Assembly (NCBI GenBank): GCA_035533435.1
Contig: DATLTX010000058.1
Location: forward strand, 27 to 64,026
DNA: 64,000 nt
Reading direction: 5' to 3'
Source of the DNA: Candidatus Binataceae bacterium
Lineage (GTDB): Bacteria > Desulfobacterota > Binatia > Binatales > Binataceae
The notes beneath the pieces are model-generated. The model searched no databases. It worked only from the letters and a program-made list of their open reading frames with translations, and had not been told where the DNA came from. Shown here one piece after another: positions 21,348 to 57,668 of the stretch. Position numbers and translations under genes: made by a program. The number at the start of each line of letters is the position of its first letter. Within the stretch, counting starts at the first letter, position 1.

Positions 21348-25368
<4,021 letters not shown>

Positions 25369-25372
<4 letters not shown>

Positions 25373-29099: not shown

Positions 29100-29115
29100 A
29101 GCAATCGGCGTGCCG
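29100..29115 (-). promoter_or_regulatory. candidate sigma54 -24/-12 promoter for xfp-ackA-phosphorylase-atp unit
   Basis: Minus-strand cGGCACGccgaTTGCt with exact GG-N10-GC spacing, ~120 nt upstream of the xfp ATG. Confidence 0.55.
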
Positions 29116-39997: not shown

Positions 39998-40013
39998 TGG
40001 CACGACCTTCGCT
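39998..40013 (+). promoter_or_regulatory. candidate sigma54 promoter for Usp-CBS gene 1
   Basis: TGGCACGaccTTcGCt. Shares CGATGGCACGAC with the paralogue promoter. Confidence 0.55.
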
Positions 40014-40041
40014 CACTTCGAGATTGAAGGAGTTCGTCAGG

Positions 40042-40845
40042 ATGCCGAGCTTGAGGAAAATTCTTTGCCCCGTTGATCTGGACGACAACGTCGCGATTGC
40101 CCTCGATATCGCCGAGCCGCTCGCGCGCCAGAACGACGCGAAGATCGTCGTTCTTCATGTGGTTCCTGTCGTGCTCAGGCCGGAGGCCATTGCGTTATCC
40201 GCTGAATTGTACAAGTCGCAAGTGGACGCCGCCCGCTGGAAGCTCGCCGAACTGGCGCACAAGCATCTCGGCGGCCTCAAAAGCGAGATCGTCGTCGAGC
40301 TTGGCGATCCGGCCGCGATAATCATCGCGACCGCGAATCAACTTCCCGCCGACCTGCTGGTGATGACCACGCACGGACGGCGCGGACTCTCGCGCCTGAT
40401 ACTCGGCAGCGTCGCCGAGACGGTGATGCGCAGGGTTCGGTGCCCAATCATGACGGCCAGAGATTCGCACATCGACCGGCTCGCAGTCGGCCACTGGATG
40501 ACCGCGCATCCGGTCACCGCCTCGCCAGACGATAACTTGTCCACGGTCTCGGTAAAGATGCACGAGGGACGATTCCGCACGATGCCGGTCGTGAGCGCGG
40601 GTAAGCTGGTCGGCGTCATCACCGATCGCGACGTGAGGGCAAATCACAGCCAAACGATACCCATTAAAGTCGGAAAGGTTATGACCCGCGAAGTTCTGAC
40701 CGTAACACCGTCAACTTCAATTCTGGATGCGGCGCGGCTGGTCAGCGAACGCAAGATCGGCGCGCTGCCGGTCCTGAAGGATGGAGATCTGGTGGGAATT
40801 ATCTCGACTGGAGATCTCCTCCATGCGTTCGTTGAGATGCAGTGA
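40042..40845 (+). CDS. universal stress protein (UspA) domain fused to CBS pair
   Basis: Usp ATP-binding motif region (VMTTHGRRGLSRLILGSVAE) followed by two CBS motifs. The start is an ATG with AGGAG-N9; the ORF-track start at 39430 is antisense-overlapping and rejected. Confidence 0.8.
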   Translation: MPSLRKILCPVDLDDNVAIALDIAEPLARQNDAKIVVLHVVPVVLRPEAIALSAELYKSQVDAARWKLAELAHKHLGGLKSEIVVELGDPAAIIIATANQLPADLLVMTTHGRRGLSRLILGSVAETVMRRVRCPIMTARDSHIDRLAVGHWMTAHPVTASPDDNLSTVSVKMHEGRFRTMPVVSAGKLVGVITDRDVRANHSQTIPIKVGKVMTREVLTVTPSTSILDAARLVSERKIGALPVLKDGDLVGIISTGDLLHAFVEMQ

Positions 40846-41036: not shown

Positions 41037-41052
41037 AGGCACGGTTGTTGCT
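41037..41052 (+). promoter_or_regulatory. candidate sigma54 promoter for porin/cytochrome/Rieske-cyt b operon
   Basis: aGGCACGgttgTTGCT, near-perfect consensus, 47 nt upstream of ATG 41099. Confidence 0.6.
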
Positions 41053-41098
41053 CCCCCCGGCAGTGAGCCAAATCCATGATCGCCACGGGGGAGTCAGT

Positions 41099-42661
41099 AT
41101 GCGAACAAGGCGCTTTCTCATCACGCTTTCGATGGTATTGAGCCTCGCCGTTTTCGCGGGAGCGGGGCGCGCACTGGCGCAGGATTCAGGCGCGGGCGAT
41201 GCGGCCTCGCTTAAGGAGATCCAGCGCGAGATGCGTCAGATGCGCGCGGAGCGCAAAACCGATCGCGCACTGATCCAGCATCTCGAATCGCAGGTGAACG
41301 AACTCGAAACGCACAACGCGAAAACTCAGCCGACGGCCGATCAGTTGCGCAACACCGATCAAAAGCTGCAGGCGACGACCCTCGAGCTGCAGCAGACCAC
41401 CGCGCAGGTCAAGACTCTGCAAGCCAAGGTTAACGCGCCGATTCCGCCGGCCGACTTCAGTGAAGCGTTCAACCGCTACGTCGGCTCTCATTCGTTCACA
41501 ATAACCGGCGCCGCGGCGGGGCAGTTCGTCTATGATCAGCAGAGCAGCTCGATCGACGGTCTTCATCACGCCAGTCAGAACACTTTCATGTTCGACTGGG
41601 AGCCGATGATTCTGTACCGGCCAACCGACTGGATACTGTTCCAGGGTGTTTTTAGCGCTGGCTTCGGAAGCAGTGGAACCGGAACCGATCTTTCGACCGC
41701 CGACTTCCAGATTTTTCTCAACAAGTACATGACGCTGGTCGCGGGTCTCTACGATCAACCGTTCGGCGATTGGTACGAAGCGCAAAGCCCAATGTGGGTG
41801 AACCGCTTTATCACAGCCCCGCTCCCGTTCGGCGTTGAAGCGGTCGTTCCGGGCGGCGAGATCGGGCTCCAGCTCCGCGGCGGGATGCAGTGGGGAAAGC
41901 TCGGCCAGGATTTCGACTACACGGTCTGGGGCGGAAACGGTCCGACCTTCAGCGAGCCGGTGATGGGCGCGGCGGTCGGCGGACCTTCGTCGGTGGCGTC
42001 GAGCCAGACTAACGGCAAATCAATCGGCGCGCGGTTGCGCGTTTATCCGTTGCCGATCGAGGCCGAGATGGGCCGGCTCGAGCTGGGCGCATCGACCTAT
42101 AACGGCAAATGGATGAATGGCAACTGGTTCAATTCCTGGGGTGTCGATTTCAATTACTTCAAGGACTCTTTCCAGGCTCGCGGCGAATGGCTCGAGGCAT
42201 ACCGGCAGATGCCCTCCGGAATGGGCACGGATCATCGCCAGGGATGGTACCTGCAATTCGGCTACTTCCTGAACCAGGTTAATGCACCGATGGTTCCGAC
42301 CGAGGTCAACGACTTTATTCATCGGCTGGAACCGCTGGTACGCTACTCGGGCGTCAATCAACGCGGCGTTGCCAGCGACGATATCGCGGGCGCGACCGGG
42401 ACCGGATTCGGCGGCACCCAAGTGGGCCTTGTCCCCGACTTTGGAATAACCGGATCGCCGGCGTTGTACGCTCCCCATTCGCGCGAAGTTGCGCTCGGAC
42501 TTGACTATTGGATCGCACCTTCGATCGTGTGGCAGAACGAATTCGATATCGAACTACCGCACGCGGGTGGTCTGTTCGTCTCCTCGACCGGAGTCGAGAC
42601 GCCGGTCGGTTCGGTGCCCAACGATCGCGCATTCCTGAGCCAGTTCACGATCGGATTCTGA
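41099..42661 (+). CDS. putative outer-membrane porin with N-terminal coiled coil
   Basis: Signal peptide (ALA-QD), an ~90-aa coiled coil, then alternating amphipathic beta-strand pattern ending in a C-terminal Phe (TIGF). The start has GGGGAG-N6-ATG. Confidence 0.5.
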   Translation: MRTRRFLITLSMVLSLAVFAGAGRALAQDSGAGDAASLKEIQREMRQMRAERKTDRALIQHLESQVNELETHNAKTQPTADQLRNTDQKLQATTLELQQTTAQVKTLQAKVNAPIPPADFSEAFNRYVGSHSFTITGAAAGQFVYDQQSSSIDGLHHASQNTFMFDWEPMILYRPTDWILFQGVFSAGFGSSGTGTDLSTADFQIFLNKYMTLVAGLYDQPFGDWYEAQSPMWVNRFITAPLPFGVEAVVPGGEIGLQLRGGMQWGKLGQDFDYTVWGGNGPTFSEPVMGAAVGGPSSVASSQTNGKSIGARLRVYPLPIEAEMGRLELGASTYNGKWMNGNWFNSWGVDFNYFKDSFQARGEWLEAYRQMPSGMGTDHRQGWYLQFGYFLNQVNAPMVPTEVNDFIHRLEPLVRYSGVNQRGVASDDIAGATGTGFGGTQVGLVPDFGITGSPALYAPHSREVALGLDYWIAPSIVWQNEFDIELPHAGGLFVSSTGVETPVGSVPNDRAFLSQFTIGF

Positions 42662-42675
42662 GGGGAGCAACGATC

Positions 42676-42960
42676 ATGAGAAAGATATTCTTTGCGATTG
42701 TGCTAATGGTGGTGACCGTTGGTTCTCTCGGTGGTATCGTTTGGGCTGACGAACCGATATCTCCGGCGGAACATCGAAAGCTGTTCCGCGAGGGCGCGGA
42801 GTTGTGGCCGATCTATTGCAACCAGTGCCACAACGCGCGTCCCGGTTCCGAAAAGGCGCCTTATGAATGGGACCAAATCATGATGCACATGCGGACGCTC
42901 GGAAATCTCCCGCCGGAAGATGCGCAGGCGATCCTCGAGTACCTCAAAGCCGGCCGCTGA
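42676..42960 (+). CDS. small monohaem c-type cytochrome
   Basis: Signal peptide plus a single CNQCH haem-binding motif. 94 aa. AGGGGAG RBS. Confidence 0.6.
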   Translation: MRKIFFAIVLMVVTVGSLGGIVWADEPISPAEHRKLFREGAELWPIYCNQCHNARPGSEKAPYEWDQIMMHMRTLGNLPPEDAQAILEYLKAGR

Positions 42961-42987
42961 ACCGACCGCGGTCAATTCAACCCTTCG

Positions 42988-43356
42988 ATGGAGGATATAG
43001 TGAAGCGACTGATCCCAATCCTTGCCGCCGCCGCAATCGTCGCATGTGCAAGCGCTTCCGTGCGCGCCGCTGACATGGCCGCGGCCAAGCAGAACTACGA
43101 AACCTTTTGCGTCAAATGCCACGGCCCCGGCGGCAAGGGCGACGGACCCGCCGCGGCGACGCTGAGCACGCATCCGCGCGATTTCACCGATTGCGCGCGG
43201 ATGGAAAAGGAATCCGACGACAAACTGTTCAACGTAATCAAGAACGGCGGCGCCGCCAACGGCTTGAGCGCCGATATGCAGGCCTGGAGCAACGGCTTCG
43301 AGGACAGCGAGATCAAAGACCTGGTCGCGTACGTACGCACCTTCTGCAAGAAGTAG
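42988..43356 (+). CDS. class I c-type cytochrome
   Basis: Signal peptide and a CVKCH haem motif, with a distal Met ligand region (ADMQAW). Confidence 0.7.
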   Translation: MEDIVKRLIPILAAAAIVACASASVRAADMAAAKQNYETFCVKCHGPGGKGDGPAAATLSTHPRDFTDCARMEKESDDKLFNVIKNGGAANGLSADMQAWSNGFEDSEIKDLVAYVRTFCKK

Positions 43357-43358
43357 CG

Positions 43359-45272
43359 ATGAGTGCGGCGGCGAAGATCGATGCGCGGCCACGCGACCTG
43401 TGGTGGTTCCGGAAAAATGTCCCGTGCCTTGACGCCTGCCCGGTCAAGACCGACGCGGGCCGCTACGTGCAGTTGATTGCCGAGGGGCGCTTCGCCGAAG
43501 CTTACCGCGTCGCGCGCGCTCCCAACCCTATCGCCTCGATCTGCGGCCACGCGTGCGGCGCCCCGTGCGAGGACGCGTGCCGACGCGGCAAGATCGACGC
43601 GCCGGTAACGATTCGCGCGCTCAAGCGATTCGTCGCCGAGCAGTTCGGCCCCGAGTCTCTTTCCGCGAGCGATCTGCGCGAAATCCTGGCCGGCTCGATG
43701 GGCGGCGGCAGCACGACCCCGGGCCATGCCAGGATGTCCGCGGCGGCTCCCGCAGCCGACGCCGCGAAAGTCGCAGTAGTCGGCGCAGGCCCGTCGGGAC
43801 TCGCGTGCGCGCATGATCTCGCGATGCTCGGGTGGCGCGTCACGATCTTCGAAGCGATGCCGCATCCGGGCGGGATGCTGCGCTACGGAATTCCCGCCTA
43901 CCGGCTGCCACGCGACGTAATCGACTATCAGGTCGCGGAAATCGAATCGCTCGGAGTCGAGATTCGCTACTCGACGCCGCTTGGCCCGGGCTTCGGAATC
44001 GCTGAGCTGCGCGCGCAGGGCTTCGCCGCGGTGTTCCTCGCGGTCGGCGCCGGCCGCGGACGCGCGGTGAAAATCGACGGCTCCGACGCCGACGGCGTGA
44101 TCAAGGCAATCGATTATCTGCTCAACATCAATCGCGGCTATCGCACCCGGATCGGCAAACGCGTCGTCGTCATCGGCGGAGGCCTGGTTGCGATCGATGC
44201 CGCGCGCATCGCCGTGCGCGCGATGGTTCCGGGACTCGCGATGGCTTCCGACGACGAACACGTCGTCGAAATTGGCACCATGCGGGTCGCACTCGACGCC
44301 GCGCGCGAGGCGGCAAGGCGCGGCGCGCTCGAAGTTACCGTGGTCAGTCTGGAATCTGGCGCGGAGATGCCGGCGATGAAATCGGCGCAGGGCCGCGAAG
44401 AACTCGATATCGCCCGCGACGAAGGGGTCAAGTTCCTGGCCGGATGGGGCCCCAGGCGCGTGCTGGTGAAAGAGCGCAGCGCGACCGGAATCGAGCTGGT
44501 CCGATGCACCCGCGTGTTCGATGACGCGGGCCGGTTCCATCCGGAGTTCAACGACGCCGACCGTATGACCCTCGACACGGATACGGTCATTCTGGCGATT
44601 GGCCAGGCGCCGGATTTGTCGTTTCTGGGCGCTGCCGACGGCGTGGGTGCGACGCCCGGCGGAACGATCAAAATCGATCCGCTGACGCTCGCAACCGAGG
44701 CGCCCGGGATCTTTGCCGGCGGCGACGCCGCGTTTCCACCCGGGATGCTGATTACCGCCGCCCAGCAGGGCAAGCTCGCCGCGCGATCGATCGACGCGTA
44801 TCTGCGCGGAGCTCCAGCCGGAACACCGCATCTCCATGTGAATATAGAAGAGCTGCCCACTGATACGTATTCGATGATTCCGCAGTACGAGCAGATTGCG
44901 CGCGAAATTCCGATCGTCGAGCTTGGGCGGCGGACCGGAATTACCGAAGTCGAGTCGCGGCTCTCGGTCGAGCAGGCGCGCGAGCAGGCCTCGCGATGCC
45001 TCTACTGCCACGTGCATCCGATCTATAACTCGCAGGCCTGCATCCTGTGCAACCGATGCGTTGACGTGTGCCCCGAGCACTGTCTGCACTTCGGCGACGC
45101 GGCCAATATCGCCGACCCGGGCCTGCTCGCGGGCGTCGCGGTGGCGCCGGTGGCGAGCCTGTTTTTGTATGACGAGGCCAAATGCATCCGCTGCGGGCTG
45201 TGCGCGGTGCGATGTCCGACCTCGGCCATAAAAATGGAACGCTTTGAGTTCGAGGAGACTAACGAGCGGTGA
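43359..45272 (+). CDS. GltD-like FAD/NAD(P)H oxidoreductase with N- and C-terminal iron-sulfur cluster domains
   Basis: N-terminal Cys cluster (CGHACGAPCEDACRRG), a dinucleotide motif VAVVGAGPSGLACAH and a second GGGLVAID motif. The C-terminus carries 2x[4Fe-4S] ferredoxin motifs (CLYCHV..CILCNRCVDVCP ; CIRCGLCAVRCP). Starts 3 nt after the preceding stop. Confidence 0.75.
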   Translation: MSAAAKIDARPRDLWWFRKNVPCLDACPVKTDAGRYVQLIAEGRFAEAYRVARAPNPIASICGHACGAPCEDACRRGKIDAPVTIRALKRFVAEQFGPESLSASDLREILAGSMGGGSTTPGHARMSAAAPAADAAKVAVVGAGPSGLACAHDLAMLGWRVTIFEAMPHPGGMLRYGIPAYRLPRDVIDYQVAEIESLGVEIRYSTPLGPGFGIAELRAQGFAAVFLAVGAGRGRAVKIDGSDADGVIKAIDYLLNINRGYRTRIGKRVVVIGGGLVAIDAARIAVRAMVPGLAMASDDEHVVEIGTMRVALDAAREAARRGALEVTVVSLESGAEMPAMKSAQGREELDIARDEGVKFLAGWGPRRVLVKERSATGIELVRCTRVFDDAGRFHPEFNDADRMTLDTDTVILAIGQAPDLSFLGAADGVGATPGGTIKIDPLTLATEAPGIFAGGDAAFPPGMLITAAQQGKLAARSIDAYLRGAPAGTPHLHVNIEELPTDTYSMIPQYEQIAREIPIVELGRRTGITEVESRLSVEQAREQASRCLYCHVHPIYNSQACILCNRCVDVCPEHCLHFGDAANIADPGLLAGVAVAPVASLFLYDEAKCIRCGLCAVRCPTSAIKMERFEFEETNER

Positions 45273-45727
45273 ATACCGATCGACGCAGACTGTTGCGAAT
45301 CGTCGGCAAGGGTTCCGTGCTCGCGGCCTTTCTGGCGCAAATTGGCGCCGCCGGGCGCGCGTTTTTTCCTAATGTGCTCTACGAGCCGCCGCGCAAGTTC
45401 AAGCTCAAGCGGCCGCAGGACTATCCGCCCGGATACACCTTTGACGCAACGCATCGCCTGTACGTGATCCGCGATGCCAACGCGTTCCACGTCATCTCGG
45501 CGATCTGTACTCATCTCGGATGCAACGTGCAGTGGAAGGGCACCGAGTTCGATTGCCCATGCCACGGCAGCCGCTTCAATCCCGATGGCACTGTGATCGG
45601 CGGTCCCGCGCCCGCGCCGCTGCCGTGGTTCGAAGCCAATGAGTCGCCCGATGGATTCCTGCAAGTTGATACCGCCGAACCGGTCGCACGCGGCTTCCGC
45701 TTCGTGCCGCCAACCCTGAAGGCATAG
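45269..45727 (+). CDS. Rieske [2Fe-2S] iron-sulfur protein (Tat-exported)
   Basis: Twin-arginine RRRLLRIV, with box I CTHLGC and box II CPCHGS. Confidence 0.85.
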   Translation: MNTDRRRLLRIVGKGSVLAAFLAQIGAAGRAFFPNVLYEPPRKFKLKRPQDYPPGYTFDATHRLYVIRDANAFHVISAICTHLGCNVQWKGTEFDCPCHGSRFNPDGTVIGGPAPAPLPWFEANESPDGFLQVDTAEPVARGFRFVPPTLKA

Positions 45728-45733
45728 CCGGCG

Positions 45734-47035
45734 ATGCGCGAACGAATGGCGAAATTGTGGCGTATGGTTTCGTGGTCGTGGTCTCCGGCCAGTGACCGCG
45801 AGTCGTCTGAGGCGATCGTCAGCAACTTCTGGCTGCACTGGTTTCCGGCCAAAGTCGCGCGCGCCAGCATGGACTTCAACTACTCGTTCTGGCTCGGAAC
45901 CGCGTCGGCGGCGTTATTCGCGATCCTGACAATCACCGGCGTGATGCTGATGTTCTTCTACGTGCCGTCAACCGAACGCGCGTACGGAAGCATCAAGGAT
46001 CTCGAGTACGCGGTCAGCTTCGGCCGCCTGCTCCGCAATCAGCATCGTTGGGCCGCCGAAGGGATGGTCGCGGTGGTGTTCATCCATATGGCGCGGGTGT
46101 TCTTCACCGGGGCCTATCGCGGACCGCGCGCGATGAACTGGCTGATGGGAATCGCGCTGTTGTTCGCGACGCTGCTGCTCTCATTCACCGGCTATCTGCT
46201 GCCGTGGGATCAGCTCGCCTACTGGGCGGTCACGGTAGGGACCGGAATCGCGCGGCAGGCGCCCGTCGTCGGTAATACGCTCGCGCTGATTCTCCTGGGC
46301 GGCACCGAGATCGGCCAGCAGACGCTGCTCCGATTCTATGTGATGCACGTATTCTTTCTGCCCGTATTCGCGTGGATCCTGTTTGGCTATCACATGTGGC
46401 GAGTGCGCAAGGACGGGGGCCTTGCCGCAATCGAGCCGCTGCGCCACGCCCGCGTTTCAGCGCCGCGCGAAACTCCGGCGGCGAAGAGCTATTCAATCTT
46501 CGGAGTCACTCCCGGCACCTCGCTCGCGGTACGCAGCTCGATGCAGCTCGAGGAGCGCGATCAGGTCGCGTCGTCGCCGAATCTTACCCGGCGCCTGATG
46601 CTGGTGTTCCTGGGGGTGTTCAACCTGACGCTGGCCGCCGCGCTGCTGTTCAACGCGCCGCTCGAGGGGCCGGCAAATCCCTCCGTGACGCCCAACCCCG
46701 CCAAGGCGCCGTGGTATTTCGTGTGGCTGCAGGAGCTAGTCGCCTCAACGACGATCCATCTGGGCCCTTACACTGTAAGCGGCGCGCTGCTGGGCGGCAT
46801 CCTGGTGCCGGGAATCCTGTTCGCGGTGCTTGCGATATGGCCCTTCCTTGACCGCGCGCCGCTCACGGCCGAGGGCGTGTGGTTCGCACGGACGCGGCGC
46901 CGCCAGAACCTGATCTTTGCCGCGATCTCGGTCCTAGTCATCATCCTGATATTCGTCGGCGTGTTTCTGCGGGGACCGTACTGGCGGCTGTATTGGCTGG
47001 GGACGCCCCGACCCGTAATGCCGACCATGATGTAA
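45734..47035 (+). CDS. cytochrome b (b6/bc-type, long form)
   Basis: Haem-ligand histidines in helices B and D (HRW...H ; YVMHVFFLP) and the PWDQ motif. 433 aa. Confidence 0.85.
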   Translation: MRERMAKLWRMVSWSWSPASDRESSEAIVSNFWLHWFPAKVARASMDFNYSFWLGTASAALFAILTITGVMLMFFYVPSTERAYGSIKDLEYAVSFGRLLRNQHRWAAEGMVAVVFIHMARVFFTGAYRGPRAMNWLMGIALLFATLLLSFTGYLLPWDQLAYWAVTVGTGIARQAPVVGNTLALILLGGTEIGQQTLLRFYVMHVFFLPVFAWILFGYHMWRVRKDGGLAAIEPLRHARVSAPRETPAAKSYSIFGVTPGTSLAVRSSMQLEERDQVASSPNLTRRLMLVFLGVFNLTLAAALLFNAPLEGPANPSVTPNPAKAPWYFVWLQELVASTTIHLGPYTVSGALLGGILVPGILFAVLAIWPFLDRAPLTAEGVWFARTRRRQNLIFAAISVLVIILIFVGVFLRGPYWRLYWLGTPRPVMPTMM

Positions 47036-47060
47036 CCAGATTCGAGGCGCACATCAATTC

Positions 47061-48032
47061 ATGGAACAGCCGCAAAAGTCACCTCCGGAATCTTACGAGT
47101 CGCGCGACTTCGGATGGTTAGTCGCAATGTCGCTGCTTTTTTTTGGACTGGTCGTGATCGGTTTCTGGCACGAGTACGACACGCAGTGGGCTCCGTATCA
47201 GCGCGAATTCCCCGCCATGCTCGGCCACTATGGCAAGGGCGATGAGGCGCGCAAATTCACCGCCGGAATCAAGCAAATCTGGATTCCGCAGATCGGCGTC
47301 ACCGACCGTTGCATCACCTGCCATCTCGGCTACGACTGGAGCGCGGTGCTGCCGCCGACGCTCGGACAGCCACTAACGCCTCATCCAGCCGGCGATCTGA
47401 TTGCGCGGCATCCGTTTGAAAAATTCGGATGCACTCCGTGCCACGGCGGCCAGGGATGGGCGACCAACGCGCAAGCCGCTCACGTCGGCGGCGCGGGATG
47501 GATCGATCCGATGATCTCGCCGGCGCTGGCCGCCTCTGCCGGGCTGACGATGAGCGAGATGATGCAGATGCGGTGCAATTTCTGTCACCGCCACGACGAA
47601 GCCACCCCGGGCATGGACGAGATCAATCGGGCCAAGCTGCTGCTGCGCAAGCGCAAATGCATGCTCTGCCACAGTATCGAGGGACGCGGAGGCAACGCCG
47701 GGCCGGAGCTGACCTATGAAGGCGACGCCAACCCGGAGCTCTACGATTTCTCGCACGTGACCGGACCCAAGACGTTTTTCAACTGGAACGTGCAGCATCT
47801 GATGCACGCGAGCCGGATTTCACCGGCCACGCAGATGCCCGACTACAACATGCCAGTCGAAGACGCGCGGGCGCTGACCTTGCTCTTGCTAAGCTGGCGG
47901 CGGCAGACTTTCCCGCCCGACTATATTCCCGCGGCGGCGGAGGCGGCCGCCGCTATGCAACCGACGCCGACTCCCGCTCCGACTCCCGCTCCGACTCCCG
48001 CGCCGGCATCGCCCGCACCGGAGCATCACTGA
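47061..48032 (+). CDS. membrane-anchored tetrahaem c-type cytochrome with C-terminal (PTPA)n tail
   Basis: N-terminal TM and four CxxCH motifs (CITCH, CTPCH, CNFCH, CMLCH). The C-terminal low-complexity tail is PTPTPAPTPAPTPAPASPAPEHH. Confidence 0.75.
   Translation: MEQPQKSPPESYESRDFGWLVAMSLLFFGLVVIGFWHEYDTQWAPYQREFPAMLGHYGKGDEARKFTAGIKQIWIPQIGVTDRCITCHLGYDWSAVLPPTLGQPLTPHPAGDLIARHPFEKFGCTPCHGGQGWATNAQAAHVGGAGWIDPMISPALAASAGLTMSEMMQMRCNFCHRHDEATPGMDEINRAKLLLRKRKCMLCHSIEGRGGNAGPELTYEGDANPELYDFSHVTGPKTFFNWNVQHLMHASRISPATQMPDYNMPVEDARALTLLLLSWRRQTFPPDYIPAAAEAAAAMQPTPTPAPTPAPTPAPASPAPEHH
47967..48002 (+). repeat. 12-nt x3 tandem repeat ccgactcccgct encoding (PTPA)3
   Basis: Three adjacent copies with 1 mismatch in the last, at the 3' end of the tetrahaem cytochrome gene. 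Confidence 0.8.
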
Positions 48033-48034
48033 GC

Positions 48035-48065
48035 GGCGGGCGTCCAATCGCCAAGGACGCCCGCC
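48035..48065. terminator. bidirectional intrinsic-terminator-like hairpin between convergent genes
   Basis: Perfect 11-bp stem GGCGGGCGTCC / GGACGCCCGCC with a 9-nt loop. A second 7-bp stem CTGAGCC-GG-GGCTCAG follows at 48088..48103. Confidence 0.5.
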
Positions 48066-48099
48066 GCGAGTGTGAATGGTGCCGGAGCTGAGCCGGGGC

Positions 48100-48585
48100 T
48101 CAGTGGACGGTTGCGGATTCGGCGACCGGCTCGGAGCGCCCGGCGCCGTCGAAAAATTCCTGCAGGTTCTGCTGATAGCGATAGAATAAATCCGCGTCGA
48201 GCTGATTGTCCGCCTCGATCCGCAGGGGAGTGTCGAGCAGCGTAAGCGTGTTCAGCGTATGCCCGAGATCGGCGTGTCCGTTGGCGGCGATATTCTCGAT
48301 CATTTCACGCCATCCCGAATACGGCCCCGAGACGACAATCGAGCCCTTGGCGGCGTCCGCGACGCTGGCCAGATGGCGCACACCGGTGCAGCGATAGCCG
48401 CTGAACACGATCTCGAAGCAGTCGCTCGAATCGTCGTAATCGATCTTCACGACCAGAGTCATGTCCACCGTGCCGAGGCGCCGGAAGAGATCGGGGTCGG
48501 CGTTGACGCGCGTGCGCAGCTCTTCAAAAAACTCTTTCGAGGGATACCAGGTCATAGTCGTTGCCTCCGTAAGCGGATAACCCAT
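48100..48585 (-). CDS. hypothetical small protein, partner of the diiron protein (possibly SCP2/NTF2-like)
   Basis: 161-aa acidic ORF. Its start is 11 nt downstream of the diiron gene stop. No motif recognised. Confidence 0.4.
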   Translation of the reverse strand: MGYPLTEATTMTWYPSKEFFEELRTRVNADPDLFRRLGTVDMTLVVKIDYDDSSDCFEIVFSGYRCTGVRHLASVADAAKGSIVVSGPYSGWREMIENIAANGHADLGHTLNTLTLLDTPLRIEADNQLDADLFYRYQQNLQEFFDGAGRSEPVAESATVH

Positions 48586-48596
48586 TCGCCAGGCGT

Positions 48597-49676
48597 TCAG
48601 ATTGGCAGCTCGAGTGGAATCGCGAGGCGGCTCGTGCGATCGATTCCCGCCATCTTGAGCCGATGCAGGTACTCGTGGATCTGCTTCTTGAACAGGTAGC
48701 CCAGCTTCGCAAAGCCTTCGTCAATATGCTCGAGGCCGCCGCCGGCCAGAATCGCGCGCGCTTCGACGGTGTCCTGGGTCTGGTTGAGGCTGAATGTCGC
48801 TTCCTCTCCGCGTTGCAGGATGTCATGAATCTCGGGCTCGCGCTCGGGATGCTTCTCGAGGAAATACTTCAGATGCATCGTGCCGTACGCGACGTGGCGC
48901 GCTTCGTCCTGCATGCAGAGCCGGAAGATTTTCTTTTCCACCGCGGACAGCGCAAACATCTCGCCGTTGCGGAACAGGGTCAGCACAAAGCCCTCGCCCA
49001 GGATGTGCATCAGCGCGCTGGCGGTGGTGAAGTTCGGCGCTTCCAGGATCACGCGCAGCAATTCCTCGGAGTCGGGTGAGGAGCGCAGCAGGCCGCCGCC
49101 GTTGGCCAGCGCGCGTTTGCGGAACACCTCCATATGCCGCGCCTCATCGAAGATTTGCGAGGCCAAAAACAATTTCACTTCGTGAAAGTCGTGGTTGATG
49201 CGATGCAGCCATTTGGCGGGCATGTCGCCGGCGACGAACTCGATCTCGGCAAGGTTGGTGCACACCTGGCACATCGCCTTCTCGAGATCATCGCGCTGCG
49301 GCCGAAGCTCATCCCACGGAATGTCGCGCGCCGAACTCCATTGCCGCGCCACCGCTTCGTCGTAAAGGTGGGCAACGTTTTCGGCCCATACCAGGGATTT
49401 GTCGTTGATGTCGTAGCAGCCGAGCGAGGGCATATCGTCGGGAATCTCTGAACCGCGCGGCGCCATGCTGCCGTATATCGATCCGTGGTCCGGCACGGCG
49501 CCATACTGTCCGACCAGGTTGATGTCTTCCAGCCCGAGGCCGCGCTCGTCGCGCGGCGTCGCCCTGACGCCCCAACCGGTGGGATTCGAGTTCATCCAGC
49601 TCAAATCCAGCTTCCCCTTGCGTACGTCGCTCAGGGTATCAAGGGCTTTCTCGACGCTTGGACTGACATGCGGCAT
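48597..49676 (-). CDS. ferritin-like diiron-carboxylate protein (AurF/CmlI-like oxygenase family, tentative)
   Basis: Two E-x(~30)-DEARH motifs (AEIEF...DEARHMEVF ; GEGF...QDEARHVAYG), typical of carboxylate-bridged di-iron four-helix-bundle enzymes. Confidence 0.5.
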   Translation of the reverse strand: MPHVSPSVEKALDTLSDVRKGKLDLSWMNSNPTGWGVRATPRDERGLGLEDINLVGQYGAVPDHGSIYGSMAPRGSEIPDDMPSLGCYDINDKSLVWAENVAHLYDEAVARQWSSARDIPWDELRPQRDDLEKAMCQVCTNLAEIEFVAGDMPAKWLHRINHDFHEVKLFLASQIFDEARHMEVFRKRALANGGGLLRSSPDSEELLRVILEAPNFTTASALMHILGEGFVLTLFRNGEMFALSAVEKKIFRLCMQDEARHVAYGTMHLKYFLEKHPEREPEIHDILQRGEEATFSLNQTQDTVEARAILAGGGLEHIDEGFAKLGYLFKKQIHEYLHRLKMAGIDRTSRLAIPLELPI

Positions 49677-49724: not shown

Positions 49725-49740
49725 CGCAAAGGACGTGCCA
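49725..49740 (-). promoter_or_regulatory. candidate sigma54 promoter for diiron-protein operon
   Basis: Minus-strand TGGCACGtcctTTGCg, perfect consensus. The adjacent 6-bp inverted repeat TGCGTT-N7-AACGCA (49710..49728) overlaps -12/+1. Confidence 0.6.
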
Positions 49741-50787: not shown

Positions 50788-50803
50788 AGCGATTGTCGTG
50801 CCA
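50788..50803 (-). promoter_or_regulatory. candidate sigma54 promoter for Usp-CBS gene 2
   Basis: Minus-strand TGGCACGacaaTcGCt. Identical 12-mer CGATGGCACGAC as the 39998 site. Confidence 0.55.
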
Positions 50804-54537: not shown

Positions 54538-55068
54538 GTGATGACAGGCGAGCGACTCGAAACCGGCAAGGGAAAAATCCGCAGTCTCAACAGGCGCGGC
54601 ACGCGCTCGGACAAGAGTCCGCCCGTGGTGCGCAAGGCGCGCAGCTACTCTGACCCTTCGATCTGCGAAAAGTGCGGCTCGGTTTATACCTCGAAAACCT
54701 GGCGCGAGCGCCGCCCCCTTACGCGTGCGCTGATGAATCAGGCCACCTGGGCGACCTGTCCCGCCTGCGAACAAGTGGACAAGGGACAGTACTTTGGCCG
54801 AGTCTCGCTGTCCGGGCCGTATCTGATCGGCCACGTCGATGCGATCCGCGCGCGTATCGCGAACGTCGAGCGGCGGGCGCGCTTCACGCAACCCGAACGC
54901 CGCGTGGTCGCGGCGGACTTCGACGGATCGACCCTCGAGGTGCTGACCAGCTCGCAGAAGCTGGCGCATCGCATCGCCCACGAAATCGAGAAAGCTTTCG
55001 GTGGCAGCGTGACCTATTCGTGGTCGGATAGCGACGGCACCCTGGCGGCGACCTGGCATCGAGAGTAG
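54538..55068 (+). CDS. zinc-ribbon (2x CxxC) protein of unknown function
   Basis: CEKCG...(24 aa)...CPAC Cys4 ribbon at the N-terminus with a conserved-looking C-terminal domain. No family assignment possible by eye. Confidence 0.45.
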   Translation: MMTGERLETGKGKIRSLNRRGTRSDKSPPVVRKARSYSDPSICEKCGSVYTSKTWRERRPLTRALMNQATWATCPACEQVDKGQYFGRVSLSGPYLIGHVDAIRARIANVERRARFTQPERRVVAADFDGSTLEVLTSSQKLAHRIAHEIEKAFGGSVTYSWSDSDGTLAATWHRE

Positions 55069-57668
55069 TGGCCGACGTGGGCGCGGCGGGCGAATCGGGC
55101 GAGCTTGCGCGCGCAGCCACGCGAACCGGCGACCAACGCTCGTATCGCGGCCTTGACCGTGCCGAGGCCGCGCGCCGCCTTGCGCGACTGGGCCCCAATG
55201 AGTTCGTGCGGCTTCGATGGTGGGATCCGGTGGTGCGTTTTCTTCGCACCGCTGCGGATCCGATGGCGCTGATGCTGGCCGCCGCCGCCGCCGCGTACTA
55301 TGCGCTCGGCGAGCGCACCGATTCATATGTCCTTCTCGCGGCGATTGTTCCGGTGCTGGCGGTCGATGTGCTCCTTGCGGCGCGCTCGCGGGCGGCGCTG
55401 CGCAAACTGGCCGGCGCGGTCGCGGCGCGCGCACGCGTCATCCGCGACGGAACCGAAGTGGATATTCCCACCCGGGAAGTCGTTCCCGGCGACGCGTTGC
55501 TGCTCGAACAGGGCGACGTGGTGCACGCCGACGCGATCGTCCGCGCCAGCTCGAATCTGATCGCCGATGAGTCCCAATTGAGCGGCGAATCCGAGCCGGT
55601 CGCCAAGCTGCCGATTGCCGGCGCACCCGGCGACCCGAACCGCGTGTACGCGGGTTCGCGCGTCCTCGAGGGCAATGCACTGGTCGAAGTCACCGCAACC
55701 GGACCGAAAACCCGCTATGGCGATCTCGCGCGACTGACCGCCGCGGTTACGCGCCGCTCGACCCCGCTCGAGCGCAGGACCGCGCGGATCGTCGGCTGGA
55801 TGATCGCGGCGGCGATCGTTGTCGCGACGCTCGTGTTCGCGTTGCGAATACTGGCAGGCGTGCCCGCGGCGAGCGCGTTCCTCTACGCGATCAGCCTTGC
55901 GATGTCCGCCGCCGGCGAAGAATTCCTGCTCGTGCTGACCCTGTTCCTCAGCCTTGGCGCGTACCGGCTCGGCCGTCACGGAGTTCTGGTGCGCCGGTTG
56001 GCGAGCGTTGAAACCCTCGGTTCCACAACCGTCATATGCCTGGACAAAACCGGTACGCTGACCGCTGGCGAGTTCGCGCTCGAGACACATGATGCTCTCG
56101 ACCGCGACGGCACCGACGCGGCACTCTTGGAAGCCGCCGCGCTGGCGTGCGAGGCGCGTCCCGCCGATGCAATGGAACGCGAGATTCTGGCGCATTGCGT
56201 AACGCACGGAGTTGACGCGGACGCGTTGCATGCGCGATGGCGGCTGGTCCACGATTACTCATTCGATCCGGCCGGCAAACACATGTCGCACGTCTGGATC
56301 GAACGCGCGCAAAGCTCCGCCGCGGCCGCCGGGAAAATCGTGGCCAAAGGAGCGCTCGAGGGTATCCTCGAGCACTGCGACATCGCACCTGATCAAGCTG
56401 ACCGCGCCAAACGCGAAAACGCCCGGATGGCCTCGGTCGGGATGCGCGTGCTGGCGGTCGCCGGACGTGACGGACTGGCGCGCGAGTTCACCGGCGCACG
56501 CTGGCAAGACGAACGCGGGCTGCATCTGTTCGGACTGCTGGGATTTCGCGATCCATTGCGGCCCGCGGTTCCCGCCGCAGTCGCGCTATGCTACCGCGCG
56601 GGTATCAAGCTCAAGTTGATCACGGGGGACCATGCGCTAACCGCGCACGCGGTTGCCGAAGCCGCCGGGATGGGCGGCCACGCGTCGGAGATCATCACCG
56701 GATCGCAGCTCGACGCGCTGAGCCCGTCCGCTTTCGATCGCGCCGTGGACCGCTGCACGATTTTCGCGCGCACCCGGCCCGAGCAGAAGTACGCAATTGT
56801 CGAGGCGCTCAGACGCGCCGGCGAAGTGGTCGCGATGACCGGCGACGGGATCAATGACGCGCCGGCTCTCAGGCGCGCCGACCTGGGCGTTGCGATGGGG
56901 CGGCGCGGCACCGAAATCGCCCGTACAGCGGCGGATATCGTCCTGCTCGACGACGATTTCTCGGCGTTGGCGGTCACGATCCGCGAAGGCCGCAGGCTGC
57001 TCGAATCTATTCAGCGCGCGTTCCTATATCTGATCGGCTTCAAAGTGATGCTGGTGCTGGTTGCTTTCAGCGCGCCGATTCTGGGCCTGCCGCTGCTGCT
57101 CGTGCCAGTGACTCTTGTGTGGCTCGAACTAATTGTCCATCCGGTTTCCGCGCTGGCCTTCGAGGGCGGTATCCCCGACGAAGACGTGATGGCGCGGCCG
57201 CCGACTCGGCCCTCGGCTCCGCTGGTCGATCGATCGAGCGCCATCCGCGCTGCTATCGCGGGCGCGCTGCTCGCGGCGGCGGCGCTGAGCCTGTTCGCGA
57301 TGCGGATGCGTGCGGGAGAGAATTATGCGCGGACCGTTGCGATGGTGGTAATCGTGGCGGGCAGCGTGATGCTGGTAATTGCCGAGATGGCGGGTGCGCA
57401 GCCCTGGTCGCGTCTGCACGTGCCGCGGAGCCTTCGCTTCTGGACCGTGATGCTTGCCGTCGCGGCGAGCCTGCCCATCTTCATTTCGATCAAACCGATC
57501 GCGTCGCTGTTGATGCTACAATCGATTAGGCCGGCGGATTGGTCTATAGCATTGGCCGCCGCGGCCGCCGCCGTCGGCTGGCGCGCATGCGGCGCTCCCT
57601 CCTCCCGAGACTCGAGCGACGCACGATATGACGCCTCGGTCGCGAGTAGTCGCGGGGATGTCCGCTGA
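55068..57668 (+). CDS. P-type cation-transporting ATPase (P2/Ca2+-Mg2+-like)
   Basis: Phosphorylation motif DKTGTLT, hinge MTGDGINDAPAL, and 8-10 TMs. The GTG start overlaps the preceding stop. Confidence 0.85.
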   Translation: MADVGAAGESGELARAATRTGDQRSYRGLDRAEAARRLARLGPNEFVRLRWWDPVVRFLRTAADPMALMLAAAAAAYYALGERTDSYVLLAAIVPVLAVDVLLAARSRAALRKLAGAVAARARVIRDGTEVDIPTREVVPGDALLLEQGDVVHADAIVRASSNLIADESQLSGESEPVAKLPIAGAPGDPNRVYAGSRVLEGNALVEVTATGPKTRYGDLARLTAAVTRRSTPLERRTARIVGWMIAAAIVVATLVFALRILAGVPAASAFLYAISLAMSAAGEEFLLVLTLFLSLGAYRLGRHGVLVRRLASVETLGSTTVICLDKTGTLTAGEFALETHDALDRDGTDAALLEAAALACEARPADAMEREILAHCVTHGVDADALHARWRLVHDYSFDPAGKHMSHVWIERAQSSAAAAGKIVAKGALEGILEHCDIAPDQADRAKRENARMASVGMRVLAVAGRDGLAREFTGARWQDERGLHLFGLLGFRDPLRPAVPAAVALCYRAGIKLKLITGDHALTAHAVAEAAGMGGHASEIITGSQLDALSPSAFDRAVDRCTIFARTRPEQKYAIVEALRRAGEVVAMTGDGINDAPALRRADLGVAMGRRGTEIARTAADIVLLDDDFSALAVTIREGRRLLESIQRAFLYLIGFKVMLVLVAFSAPILGLPLLLVPVTLVWLELIVHPVSALAFEGGIPDEDVMARPPTRPSAPLVDRSSAIRAAIAGALLAAAALSLFAMRMRAGENYARTVAMVVIVAGSVMLVIAEMAGAQPWSRLHVPRSLRFWTVMLAVAASLPIFISIKPIASLLMLQSIRPADWSIALAAAAAAVGWRACGAPSSRDSSDARYDASVASSRGDVR

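Follow-up and report, generated by a model that had tools for sequence, protein, structure and literature searches.

A flavoprotein-linked Rieske/cytochrome b operon of Binataceae and its probable kinship with the anammox bc-type complexes

Why should a bc-type respiratory complex share an operon with an NAD(P)H-oxidoreductase-like flavoprotein, and what would the two do together? The question is raised by a locus in a 64,000-nucleotide (nt) stretch of contig DATLTX010000058.1 (GenBank assembly GCA_035533435.1, Candidatus Binataceae bacterium), referred to here as the window. On the plus strand of the window, from 41037 to 48067, a σ54-type promoter element is followed by seven tightly packed, codirectional genes and a terminal hairpin. 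The genes encode a porin-like protein, two small monoheme cytochromes c, an iron-sulfur (FeS) flavoprotein, a Rieske protein, a cytochrome b, and a tetraheme cytochrome c (Table 1). We consider it highly probable (about 0.9) that this operon encodes a flavoprotein-containing Rieske/cytochrome b complex of the kind known as the APWY clade or subfamily G. The class as such is already known bioinformatically; the Binataceae operon, and the flavoprotein sub-type with an insertion and an SLES motif that it carries, have not been described before.

The operon and its core proteins

An earlier note on this locus, made from the sequence alone, had described seven codirectional genes behind a near-consensus σ54 promoter. 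All seven open reading frames were indeed found on the plus strand, between 41099 and 48032, and the promoter element was one mismatch off the consensus. The spacing, given earlier as gaps of 3 to 27 nt with some overlaps, was essentially right: the measured distances, in gene order, are 14, 27, 2, −4, 6, and 25 nt. The negative value arises because the stop codon of the flavoprotein gene and the GTG start codon of the Rieske gene share the sequence GTGA. No σ70-like promoter was detected by a consensus scan of the plus strand inside the operon, and the five terminator-like sites in the scanned region are no commoner than in shuffled sequence. Directly after the last stop codon lies a hairpin with a perfect 13-bp stem (−32.9 kcal/mol, z −5.45), whose stability was equaled in 0 of 200 shuffles; it is absent from the terminator scan because it has no T-run. 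An Rfam scan of the window gave no match. Owing to the GTGA overlap, the lack of an internal promoter or terminator signal, and the conserved gene order described below, we regard the flavoprotein as part of the system. The gene identities proposed earlier for the cytochromes c, the flavoprotein with its GltD-type core, the Tat-exported Rieske protein, the cytochrome b, and the tetraheme cytochrome c agree with Pfam and NCBIfam matches and with the motifs.

The flavoprotein combines an N-terminal Fer4_20 domain, a Pyr_redox_2 region (FAD- and NAD(P)-type Rossmann domains), and two C-terminal Fer4 domains, corresponding to 2x[4Fe-4S]. Its best PDB matches are NfnABC (9bov/9bp5, E = 4e-76), followed by NfnA, StnC, NfnB (E = 1e-57), and GltD, and its homologues carry the source names Binataceae and Binatus. 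No signal peptide is apparent, and neither of two weak hydrophobic stretches (scores of 1.67 to 1.68) is N-terminal. From the predicted signal and transmembrane topology, the flavoprotein is expected in the cytoplasm, and the c-type cytochromes and the Rieske head are expected in the periplasm. With NfnB, NfnABC, Stn, and GltD the protein shares its fold and cofactors (Fer4_20 clusters, FAD, and a nucleotide-type Rossmann domain). Unlike them, it has no NfnA, GltB, or formate dehydrogenase partner, and for its 2x[4Fe-4S] domain at the C terminus we propose docking on a membrane cytochrome b.

Membership of the flavoprotein in named families was rejected throughout, since its NCBIfam scores stay under every family cutoff. 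For GltD, the models TIGR01317 and TIGR01318 gave 160 and 193 bits against cutoffs of 448 and 483; the C-terminal ferredoxin domain is foreign to GltD, and no GltB gene was found in the operon or in related loci. Separate transcription together with clustering among stand-alone glutamate synthase small subunits, which the earlier note had named as one of two findings that would overturn its view, is at odds with the scores, with the missing GltB, and with the overlap of the gene with the start of the Rieske gene. NfnB was discarded because the score is below the family cutoff, the YRR motif is missing, and no NfnA-like gene is present; the beta subunit of formate dehydrogenase was discarded on family cutoffs and on the missing partner.

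All non-anammox members of the group share an insertion of about 34 residues, placed right after the GGGxxAxDxAR motif of the nucleotide-binding domain. In the window, the insertion region (44178 to 44336, residues ~274 to 326) copies the helix that precedes it (AIDAARIAVR/ALDAAREAAR), and HMMER places both helix copies on the same NfnABC segment, so that the insertion looks like an internal duplication common to all non-anammox members. The same members read SLE(S/N/Q), SLES in the window, at the position where Kuenenia and NfnB-like outgroups have YRR. In Rossmann domains, NADH binding is classically marked by a Glu where the second Arg would stand. Because both Arg residues of YRR are lost and a Glu is gained, the motif suggests that NADH rather than NADPH is the likely nucleotide. 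The glycine-rich GGGxxAxDxAR motif itself and an EMPA segment are kept. In a neighbor-joining tree of the flavoprotein, the sequences from Binataceae, Acidimicrobiia, and locus L078 form a clade, outside which fall NfnB-like homologues without Rieske/cytochrome b neighbors. The Kuenenia flavoprotein branches on its own, and because the tree does not settle whether it is sister to the insertion type, we make no claim of a single origin for the linkage.

Cytochrome b matches PF00033 and PF00032, with b6 as its best PDB match (E = 1e-40). The heme b ligands H104, H118, H205, and H220 are invariant, and the Qo motif NPAKAPWYF (hence APWY) occurs in all members, including the subunit IV of Kuenenia. 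A further histidine, His35, on an N-terminal extension, is invariant in 20/20 aligned cytochromes b from six lineages. The heme cn cysteine of the CxGG motif is absent (FWLGT versus WCMGG in Kuenenia), and, as read from the alignment, the position of the bc1-type Qi His is occupied by Arg. Of 113 scorable loci, 104 have cytochrome b and subunit IV as one fused protein; 10 more were unscorable. Membership in the Geobacter ExtP and ExtQ families was rejected (256 bits against a cutoff of 290 and 66 against 150, respectively).

The last gene of the operon encodes a cytochrome c with the heme motifs CITCH, CTPCH, CNFCH, and CMLCH, one N-terminal transmembrane helix, and a Pro/Thr/Ala tail (PTPAP). 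Pfam yields weak matches to c7 and class I cytochromes, and comparison with the PDB gives no significant match and none to cytochrome c1. The protein occupies the place of cytochrome c1 or f and is always the fourth gene of the core. A canonical cytochrome bc1 complex was therefore rejected, as the earlier note had anticipated: the third redox subunit is a tetraheme protein without a c1 match, and the Qo motif is APWY instead of PEWY or PDWY. The Rieske protein (PF00355, E = 3e-12) has the cluster-binding boxes CTHLGC...CPCHGSRF and a twin-arginine signal, DRRRLL. Its signature is S-F, as in Kustd1480 of Kuenenia, and members of the group read CPCHGS(R/K)(F/Y). Its best PDB matches are 9rk4 (4e-20) and 9rk3 (1e-19), which are Kuste4569 and Kustd1480, respectively (Hauser et al. 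2025, PMC12954380); the best b6f Rieske protein follows at 7e-15. As a separate observation, the Rieske proteins of a group with ~50% identity (L099 to L157; Acidobacteriota, Kryptonia, and Bacteroidota) have ~18 extra residues inserted between the boxes; this insertion is missing from Binataceae, Kuenenia, and b6f.

The earlier note had proposed looking at operon conservation in related genomes. A search of GTDB, with one genome per species, gave 73 loci, and all seven genes were found in order in ~55 species-level Binataceae/Binatus genomes; the seven-gene arrangement is far beyond chance. A few lineages (L002, L033, and L050) are without the porin and the 94-amino-acid (aa) cytochrome and keep the order flavoprotein-Rieske-cytochrome b-multiheme cytochrome c. 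A metagenome scan yielded at least 600 stretches, of which at least 580 were confirmed and 80 loci were kept; the same four genes occur in every one of the 80 kept loci with enough downstream DNA. The ~50%-identity group comprises Vicinamibacterales (Acidobacteriota), Bacteroidota, and Ca. Kryptonia. Altogether, the synteny of flavoprotein and Rieske/cytochrome b genes extends over >130 loci in at least five phyla, the four-gene core being common in further bacteria of soil and sediment. Among 1.84 billion cluster representatives searched, several dozen clusters (50% identity) give one alignment stretch over the full length. The flavoprotein linkage, called unusual in the earlier note, is thus real, but it is widespread and has already been noted (PMC5600118, PMC4122944).

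What accompanies the core varies from locus to locus. In Acidimicrobiia (L060:3715-12638), a COX1 gene precedes the genes for flavoprotein, cytochrome b6, subunit IV, Rieske protein, and cytochrome c. At L078:5812-16353 (GCA_964620445.1), the flavoprotein-Rieske-cytochrome b core is followed by a full cbb3 set (COX1, FixO, and a FixG-like protein), and at L090 the cluster adjoins COX1. The closest relative, L003 (88% identity), has an insert of ~3 kb between the two small cytochrome genes (L003:3613-6553; also in L082). It codes for a further cytochrome c, cupredoxin-like proteins, and a two-domain copper protein resembling NirK. The best PDB matches of the last are all copper nitrite reductases (to 1.7e-44), and TIGR02376 scores 142 against a cutoff of 296. 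Its copper ligands look conserved, but Asn stands in place of both the HxxDFH Asp and the FHVVG His; nitrite reduction is therefore doubtful, as both of these catalytic residues are replaced. At L002, cupredoxin-like genes adjoin the core. Judged by gene content, the pattern is one of a constant four-gene core with variable, putatively high-potential periplasmic partners, which parallels the HAO-like Kuste4574 of Kuenenia and the extHIJKLMNOPQS cluster of Geobacter.

Kinship with the anammox complexes and the APWY clade

The Rieske/cytochrome b complexes Kuste4569-4574 and Kustd1480-1485 of the anammox bacterium Kuenenia stuttgartiensis were reportedly described by Kartal in 2013 and by de Almeida in 2016. 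Starting from the Kuste4569 sequence, we recovered a Kuenenia sp. locus and compared its products with the window proteins by BLASTP. The locus encodes a Rieske protein, a 581-aa flavoprotein, cytochrome b6, subunit IV, a hexaheme cytochrome c, and an HAO-like protein. The window flavoprotein is 33% identical to the kuste4570 homologue over residues 13 to 632 (E = 8e-99) and 41% identical to its counterpart at L078. Cytochrome b shares 47% identity with the b6-like subunit, and its C-terminal part shares 31% with subunit IV. The tetraheme protein is 26% identical to the start of the hexaheme protein and, likewise, 26% identical to the multiheme subunit of L078. The analogy to the anammox complexes that had been suggested for the window is borne out by these values for flavoprotein and cytochrome b and by the best PDB matches of the Rieske protein.

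Individual residues agree as well. In the flavoproteins of the window, Kuenenia, and L078 alike, six N-terminal Cys, a CxxC pair, and the first CxxCxxCxxxC motif stand at corresponding places; the second four-Cys motif at the C terminus reads CxxCxxCxxxC in the window and L078 versus CxxCxxCxxC in Kuenenia. His35 of cytochrome b aligns with His43 of Kuste4571, which in an AlphaFold3 model ligates an additional heme b between the monomers (Hauser et al. 2025, PMC12954380), and Arg566 of the flavoprotein matches Arg511 of Kuste4570, which approaches the extra heme in the same study's model.

Both systems have an NfnB-like FeS flavoprotein gene inside a Rieske/cytochrome b operon, a b6-type cytochrome b with APWY, a multiheme cytochrome c in place of c1 or f, and menaquinone together with a high-potential-type Rieske signature. 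In contrast to Kuenenia, where b6 and subunit IV are split and CxGG is present, the window has a fused protein without the heme cn cysteine, and its subunit IV part has ~3 transmembrane helices rather than 5. The window flavoprotein carries the 34-residue insertion and SLES in place of YRR, and the cytochrome c has four hemes where Kuenenia has six or eight; some relatives have five. The window operon contains no HAO-like gene; a porin and two monoheme cytochromes c are encoded in addition. The host also differs, being an aerobic soil bacterium without an anammoxosome. On these sequence features, the predicted Binataceae complex is a distinct sub-type of the anammox kind of flavoprotein Rieske/cytochrome b complexes.

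A large oxidoreductase in connection with cytochrome b subfamily G is also said to have been named by Dibrova in 2013. Dibrova et al. 2017 (PMC5600118) report that cytochromes b of subfamily G are found together with large NAD(P)-binding, Cys-rich oxidoreductases, and that such co-occurrence is found "in many other cases" beyond planctomycetes. The same study correlates long cytochromes b with loss of CxGG, places Ca. Kryptonia in subfamily G, and distinguishes a clade G', whose long cytochromes b belong to conserved operons without a known function. Kao and Hunte 2014 (PMC4122944) define an uncharacterized, taxonomically mixed APWY clade apart from the conventional complexes; they read its Rieske signatures as mid to high potential, with S-F at about +260 mV, and suggest reverse operation. 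The window operon resembles these groups in the pairing of cytochrome b with a Cys-rich NAD(P)-binding oxidoreductase, in APWY, in the S-F/S-Y Rieske type, in the long cytochrome b without CxGG, and in the mixed taxa that include Ca. Kryptonia and Planctomycetes. By its motifs it would therefore be of the APWY clade/subfamily G kind, the link to subfamily G being an indirect one via the Ca. Kryptonia relatives. The papers on both groups are phylogenomic only and did not sample Binatota; the insertion/SLES sub-type, the tetraheme subunit, the porin module, and σ54 control are not described in them.

Other relatives are more distant. The extHIJKLMNOPQS cluster of Geobacter sulfurreducens (PMC5877670) encodes an OprP-like porin (ExtI), c-type cytochromes, a Rieske protein (ExtO), a b6-type protein (ExtP), and a subunit IV-like protein (ExtQ). 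It shares with the window the combination of porin, cytochromes, and Rieske/cytochrome b, and ExtP and ExtQ are the best NCBIfam matches of the window cytochrome b, both below their cutoffs. In contrast to the window, it has no flavoprotein and contains cytochromes with 4 to 12 hemes, a rhodanese, and a selenoprotein. With cytochrome b6f and the Bacillus-type bc complex, the window shares the four-helix b6 core and a Rieske protein of the b6f type; it differs in having neither heme cn nor a cytochrome f or c1, and in having a fused subunit IV, the His35 extension, and a cytoplasmic flavoprotein. The Nitrospina genome paper describes a bc-like operon with an octaheme protein and does not mention a flavoprotein.

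Possible electron path and alternative readings

For the function of the complex, we favor a bifurcating or confurcating mechanism, at a probability of 0.45 to 0.5. Menaquinol would be oxidized at a Qo site that the Tat-exported Rieske protein forms with the fused cytochrome b. Of the two electrons, one would pass uphill in potential to the Rieske cluster and then, via the anchored tetraheme cytochrome c and the two small periplasmic cytochromes c, to a high-potential acceptor, presumably a terminal oxidase in this organism. The other electron would run through hemes bP and bN to a probable extra heme b that the dimer's two His35 residues would hold between them. From there it would enter the flavoprotein, where the ferredoxin domain at the C terminus, the clusters at the N terminus, and FAD would hand it on to NAD+, with four FeS clusters along the way. 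Taken as a whole, such a complex would act as a Qo-based, in principle reversible menaquinol:NAD+ plus cytochrome c bifurcating oxidoreductase that is independent of the proton motive force (PMF). Its direction would be set by the redox state of the pools, and it would be expressed from the σ54 promoter within a local stress or energy regulon. That the proteins join into a single complex, how the electrons travel and in which direction, and which nucleotide serves are all predictions from the sequences.

This reading gains support from the joint occurrence of menaquinone, an S-F Rieske protein, and APWY. Hauser et al. 2025 (PMC12954380) measured potentials of +303 and +335 mV for the anammox Rieske proteins (+335 mV for Kustd1480) and argue that a high-potential Rieske protein together with menaquinone (about −70 mV) can make bP low enough for NAD(P)+ reduction. 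For the Kuenenia complexes, too, it is redox potentials and AlphaFold3 models that underlie the proposed function (PMC12954380). According to a survey of Binatota (10.1101/2020.09.14.296780), most genomes of the phylum have alternative complex III, all encode menaquinone biosynthesis, complex I is present, and Binatales have the Rieske iron-sulfur protein (ISP) and cytB without cytochrome c1. The presence of alternative complex III, in Binatales too, as the ordinary quinol:cytochrome c route lends bifurcation further support and, with the lack of cytochrome c1, argues that the operon is not the housekeeping complex III. The related clusters that adjoin cbb3 (L078) or COX1 (L060 and L090) fit the high-potential side of the proposed path.

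It should be noted that several points weigh against bifurcation. No member of the class has been assayed, and nucleotide binding and specificity are predicted for a protein that carries the insertion and has lost the Arg residues of YRR. Its AlphaFold2 model, built with 46 close homologues, reached a predicted local distance difference test score (pLDDT) of 61, with the FeS domains below 50, and was left out of fold searches and site analysis. Since heme cn is absent, the geometry on the N side may differ from that of the anammox complexes. The quinone type and the Rieske potential are deduced from genomes and sequence signatures. Binatota have complex I, and it is hard to see why they should need another NADH-quinone route; proximity to oxidases and to USP/CBS stress genes would fit NADH oxidation equally well.

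That last point leads to the main alternative, which we consider less likely. The flavoprotein could be an NADH dehydrogenase module that feeds the N-side hemes and, through them, menaquinone at a Qi-type site, while the rest works as an ordinary Q cycle; an NDH-2-like entry would in effect be fused to complex III, giving an NADH:cytochrome c oxidoreductase that serves a high-affinity oxidase at low oxygen or under energy stress. Electron transfer from NADH to heme bN is thermodynamically downhill, SLES suggests NADH, and clusters with cbb3 or COX1 next to them (L078, L060, and L090) would fit such an enzyme. The setting among σ54-driven USP-CBS genes, glycogen phosphorylases, and a phosphoketolase is one where NADH reoxidation would matter, and Hauser et al. 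(PMC12954380) note that in their models quinone could still approach the N-side heme. However, the cysteine for heme cn of a b6-type Qi site is absent and the bc1-type Qi His is an Arg; an invariant APWY and a high-potential-type Rieske protein with menaquinone would be needless, and ~250 mV would be wasted, though NDH-2 enzymes do likewise. Improbable, in our estimate, is a physiological direction that is the reverse (confurcating, uphill) one, in which electrons from a periplasmic donor travel via the small cytochromes c and the tetraheme protein to the Rieske center and, joined by those from NADH, reduce menaquinone at Qo, with the porin admitting the periplasmic substrate. The operon encodes no periplasmic substrate-oxidizing enzyme, and its porin and 94-aa cytochrome are confined to Binataceae while the core is universal; yet the porin and the two soluble cytochromes c are there, and the mean of the NADH and cytochrome c potentials should lie near that of menaquinone, so that the reaction would run near equilibrium. 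Kao and Hunte 2014 (PMC4122944) cite the p-cresol case of Geobacter metallireducens, itself a proposal, as is the assignment of reverse function to APWY complexes.

We give still less credence to a flavoprotein that uses no pyridine nucleotide, its altered Rossmann domain binding another ligand or none, and links the b hemes to ferredoxin or another cytoplasmic redox partner, or serves as an FeS/FAD sink or sensor. The 34-residue insertion inside the nucleotide-binding domain and the loss of YRR across the non-anammox group would fit such a role, and the nearest solved relatives (NfnABC, Nfn, and Stn) are ferredoxin-linked bifurcating enzymes; nevertheless, GGGxxAxDxAR and EMPA are kept, and a Glu at the second-Arg position is, if the Rossmann rule applies here, a signature of NADH. 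Hardly credible, finally, is a conventional bc-type complex that happens to lie beside an unrelated flavoprotein gene, be it a stand-alone GltD or a formate dehydrogenase beta subunit. Homologues are automatically annotated as "formate dehydrogenase beta subunit" or "glutamate synthase beta subunit-like," and this is outweighed by the GTGA overlap with the Rieske gene, the synteny in >130 loci across phyla, GltD model scores far under their cutoffs, the lack of GltB or a formate dehydrogenase catalytic subunit nearby, and the lack of cytochrome c1. In addition, NfnB-like outgroups without Rieske/cytochrome b neighbors fall outside the clade.

Extended beyond Binataceae, the bifurcating mechanism becomes more tentative, and we would put its chances below even. 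A widespread sub-type would then interconvert menaquinol, NADH, and cytochrome c by Qo bifurcation or confurcation, without using the PMF, in aerobic or microaerobic soil bacteria. Equally tentative is the view that this one sub-type, with a fused cytochrome b without heme cn, an extra His-ligated heme, and an insertion-bearing flavoprotein of NADH type, spans Binatota, Acidobacteriota, Bacteroidota/Kryptonia, and Acidimicrobiia. If true, it would represent a third general coupling of NAD and quinone beside complex I and NDH-2, and no specialty of anammox. The question of Qo-driven NAD(P)+ reduction has so far been posed only for the anammox complexes, whose hosts are slow growing and hard to manipulate. 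Here, a homologous and simpler module, with four core genes, four hemes c, no HAO, and probably NADH as its nucleotide, is found in hundreds of environmental genomes and keeps the proposed ligand of the extra heme. It offers expression, structural, and assay work many other sources, as well as a comparative set for judging the weight of the insertion, of SLES versus YRR, and of heme cn. The operon also explains the survey's "ISP + cytB without cyt c1" in Binatales and points to a σ54-controlled respiratory module tied to stress and energy genes.

Upstream control, accessory proteins, and gene neighborhood

The coordinates of the operon and of the features around it are collected in Table 1.

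Table 1. Operon features, σ54 motifs, and neighboring genes in the window
Feature	Position	Strand	Remarks
σ54-type −24/−12 element (AGGCACGGTTGTTGCT)	41037-41052	+	One mismatch to consensus
Outer-membrane porin-like protein, 520 aa	41099-42661	+	Signal peptide, ~100-residue coiled coil, beta-barrel, C-terminal Phe
Small monoheme cytochrome c, 94 aa, CNQCH	42676-42960	+	N-terminal signal/anchor
Monoheme class I cytochrome c, 122 aa, CVKCH	42988-43356	+	Possible lipoprotein (IVAC)
Cytoplasmic FeS flavoprotein, 637 aa	43359-45272	+	Pfam/NCBIfam and PDB matches
Tat-exported Rieske [2Fe-2S] protein, 152 aa, GTG start	45269-45727	+	PF00355, DRRRLL
Fused cytochrome b6 + subunit IV, 433 aa, ~7 transmembrane helices	45734-47035	+	Pfam, alignments
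Membrane-anchored tetraheme cytochrome c, 323 aa	47061-48032	+	Four CxxCH, one transmembrane helix
GC-rich hairpin, probable operon 3' end	48033-48067	+	Directly after last stop codon
σ54 motifs	39998-40013 (+), 41037-41052 (+), 49725-49740 (−), 50788-50803 (−), 625-640 (−), 29100-29115 (−)		Motif scan
USP+CBS gene behind σ54 motif	40030-40845	+	
Gene for weakly R2lox-like di-metal protein behind σ54 motif	49676-48597	−	
Second USP+CBS gene behind σ54 motif	50732-49908	−	
Energy-reserve/energy-conversion genes	5879-8158 (−), 11597-14104 (+), 17102-18655 (−), 21348-22955 (−)		
Energy-reserve/energy-conversion genes, continued	22832-25372 (−), 26570-28978 (−), 55068-57668 (+)		

The promoter element, AGGCACGGTTGTTGCT, lies 46 nt before the ATG of the porin gene and has a single deviation from TGGCACG-N4-TTGCW. 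Among 46 related Binataceae loci, 32 have a GGCAC-N5-TTGCT element ~60 nt upstream of the porin gene. We take this conserved upstream element as a phylogenetic footprint of a putative σ54 promoter, which is short of proof of function. Six σ54 sites were detected in the window, compared to 0.57 expected, and six were reached in 0 of 100 shuffles. Four of the six surround the operon, each 30 to 70 nt upstream of a gene, and this clustering suggests a local σ54 regulon.

The first gene of the operon had been called a coiled-coil porin. Sequence profiles do not see this beyond the coiled coil: no Pfam family was matched, and profile searches of Pfam (at E ≤ 10) and the PDB gave coiled-coil noise only. 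The predicted structure lends the claim some support. An AlphaFold2 model built with 45 homologues (pLDDT of 68) has N-terminal helices followed by a beta-barrel, and its top Foldseek matches are trimeric porins, led by the coiled-coil-stalked OmpM1 (1e-12) and followed by OprO, OmpU, and DcaP. The Foldseek probability is 1.0, and the target-normalized template modeling score is 0.60 to 0.66 for OmpM1 and 0.48 for OprO, values that refer to a model with a pLDDT of only 68. A few homologues carry PF07396 (Porin_O_P), and the window protein, which has a 100% identical NCBI counterpart from Candidatus Binataceae, ends in Phe. With moderate confidence, we therefore predict the gene product to be a coiled-coil porin. 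A Cyc2-like role in Fe(II) oxidation was rejected, the protein having neither Cys nor a heme motif.

The small cytochrome c proteins match the Pfam families Cytochrome_CBB3 and Cytochrom_C. The 122-aa one is conserved in related loci, and its PDB matches are generic class I cytochromes only. Assignment to the NCBIfam family "cytochrome 579" was rejected, since the weak match scored 38 bits and the cutoff is 280. Among the loci compared, only those of Binataceae have the porin and the 94-aa cytochrome c.

Downstream of the operon and convergent with it, two genes without an assigned function lie behind a σ54-like site (48100 to 49676, minus strand). The 359-aa product gave a faint match to R2-like ligand-binding oxidases (25 bits), and the 161-aa product had no family match. 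USP-CBS genes flank the operon in other Binataceae loci as well (L080, L085, L087, L096, and L097), and in Acidimicrobiia (L060:10623-11450) genes for a CBS protein and for a sensor kinase of the GAF-HisKA_3 kind come after the cluster, so that USP/CBS flanking appears to tie the operon repeatedly to stress genes of the energy or hypoxia type. The neighborhood of the operon looks like an energy-stress or low-oxygen regulon, which we offer as a lead rather than a result. A candidate regulator of the σ54 sites of the window is an enhancer-binding protein with Sigma54_activat and HTH_8 domains (61993 to 63498, minus strand), whose N-terminal sensor region of ~190 residues has no Pfam match. The window further encodes a glycogen debranching enzyme, two glycogen phosphorylase-type proteins, ATP synthase alpha/beta-type subunits, a P-type cation ATPase, and a phosphoketolase with a σ54-like site upstream.

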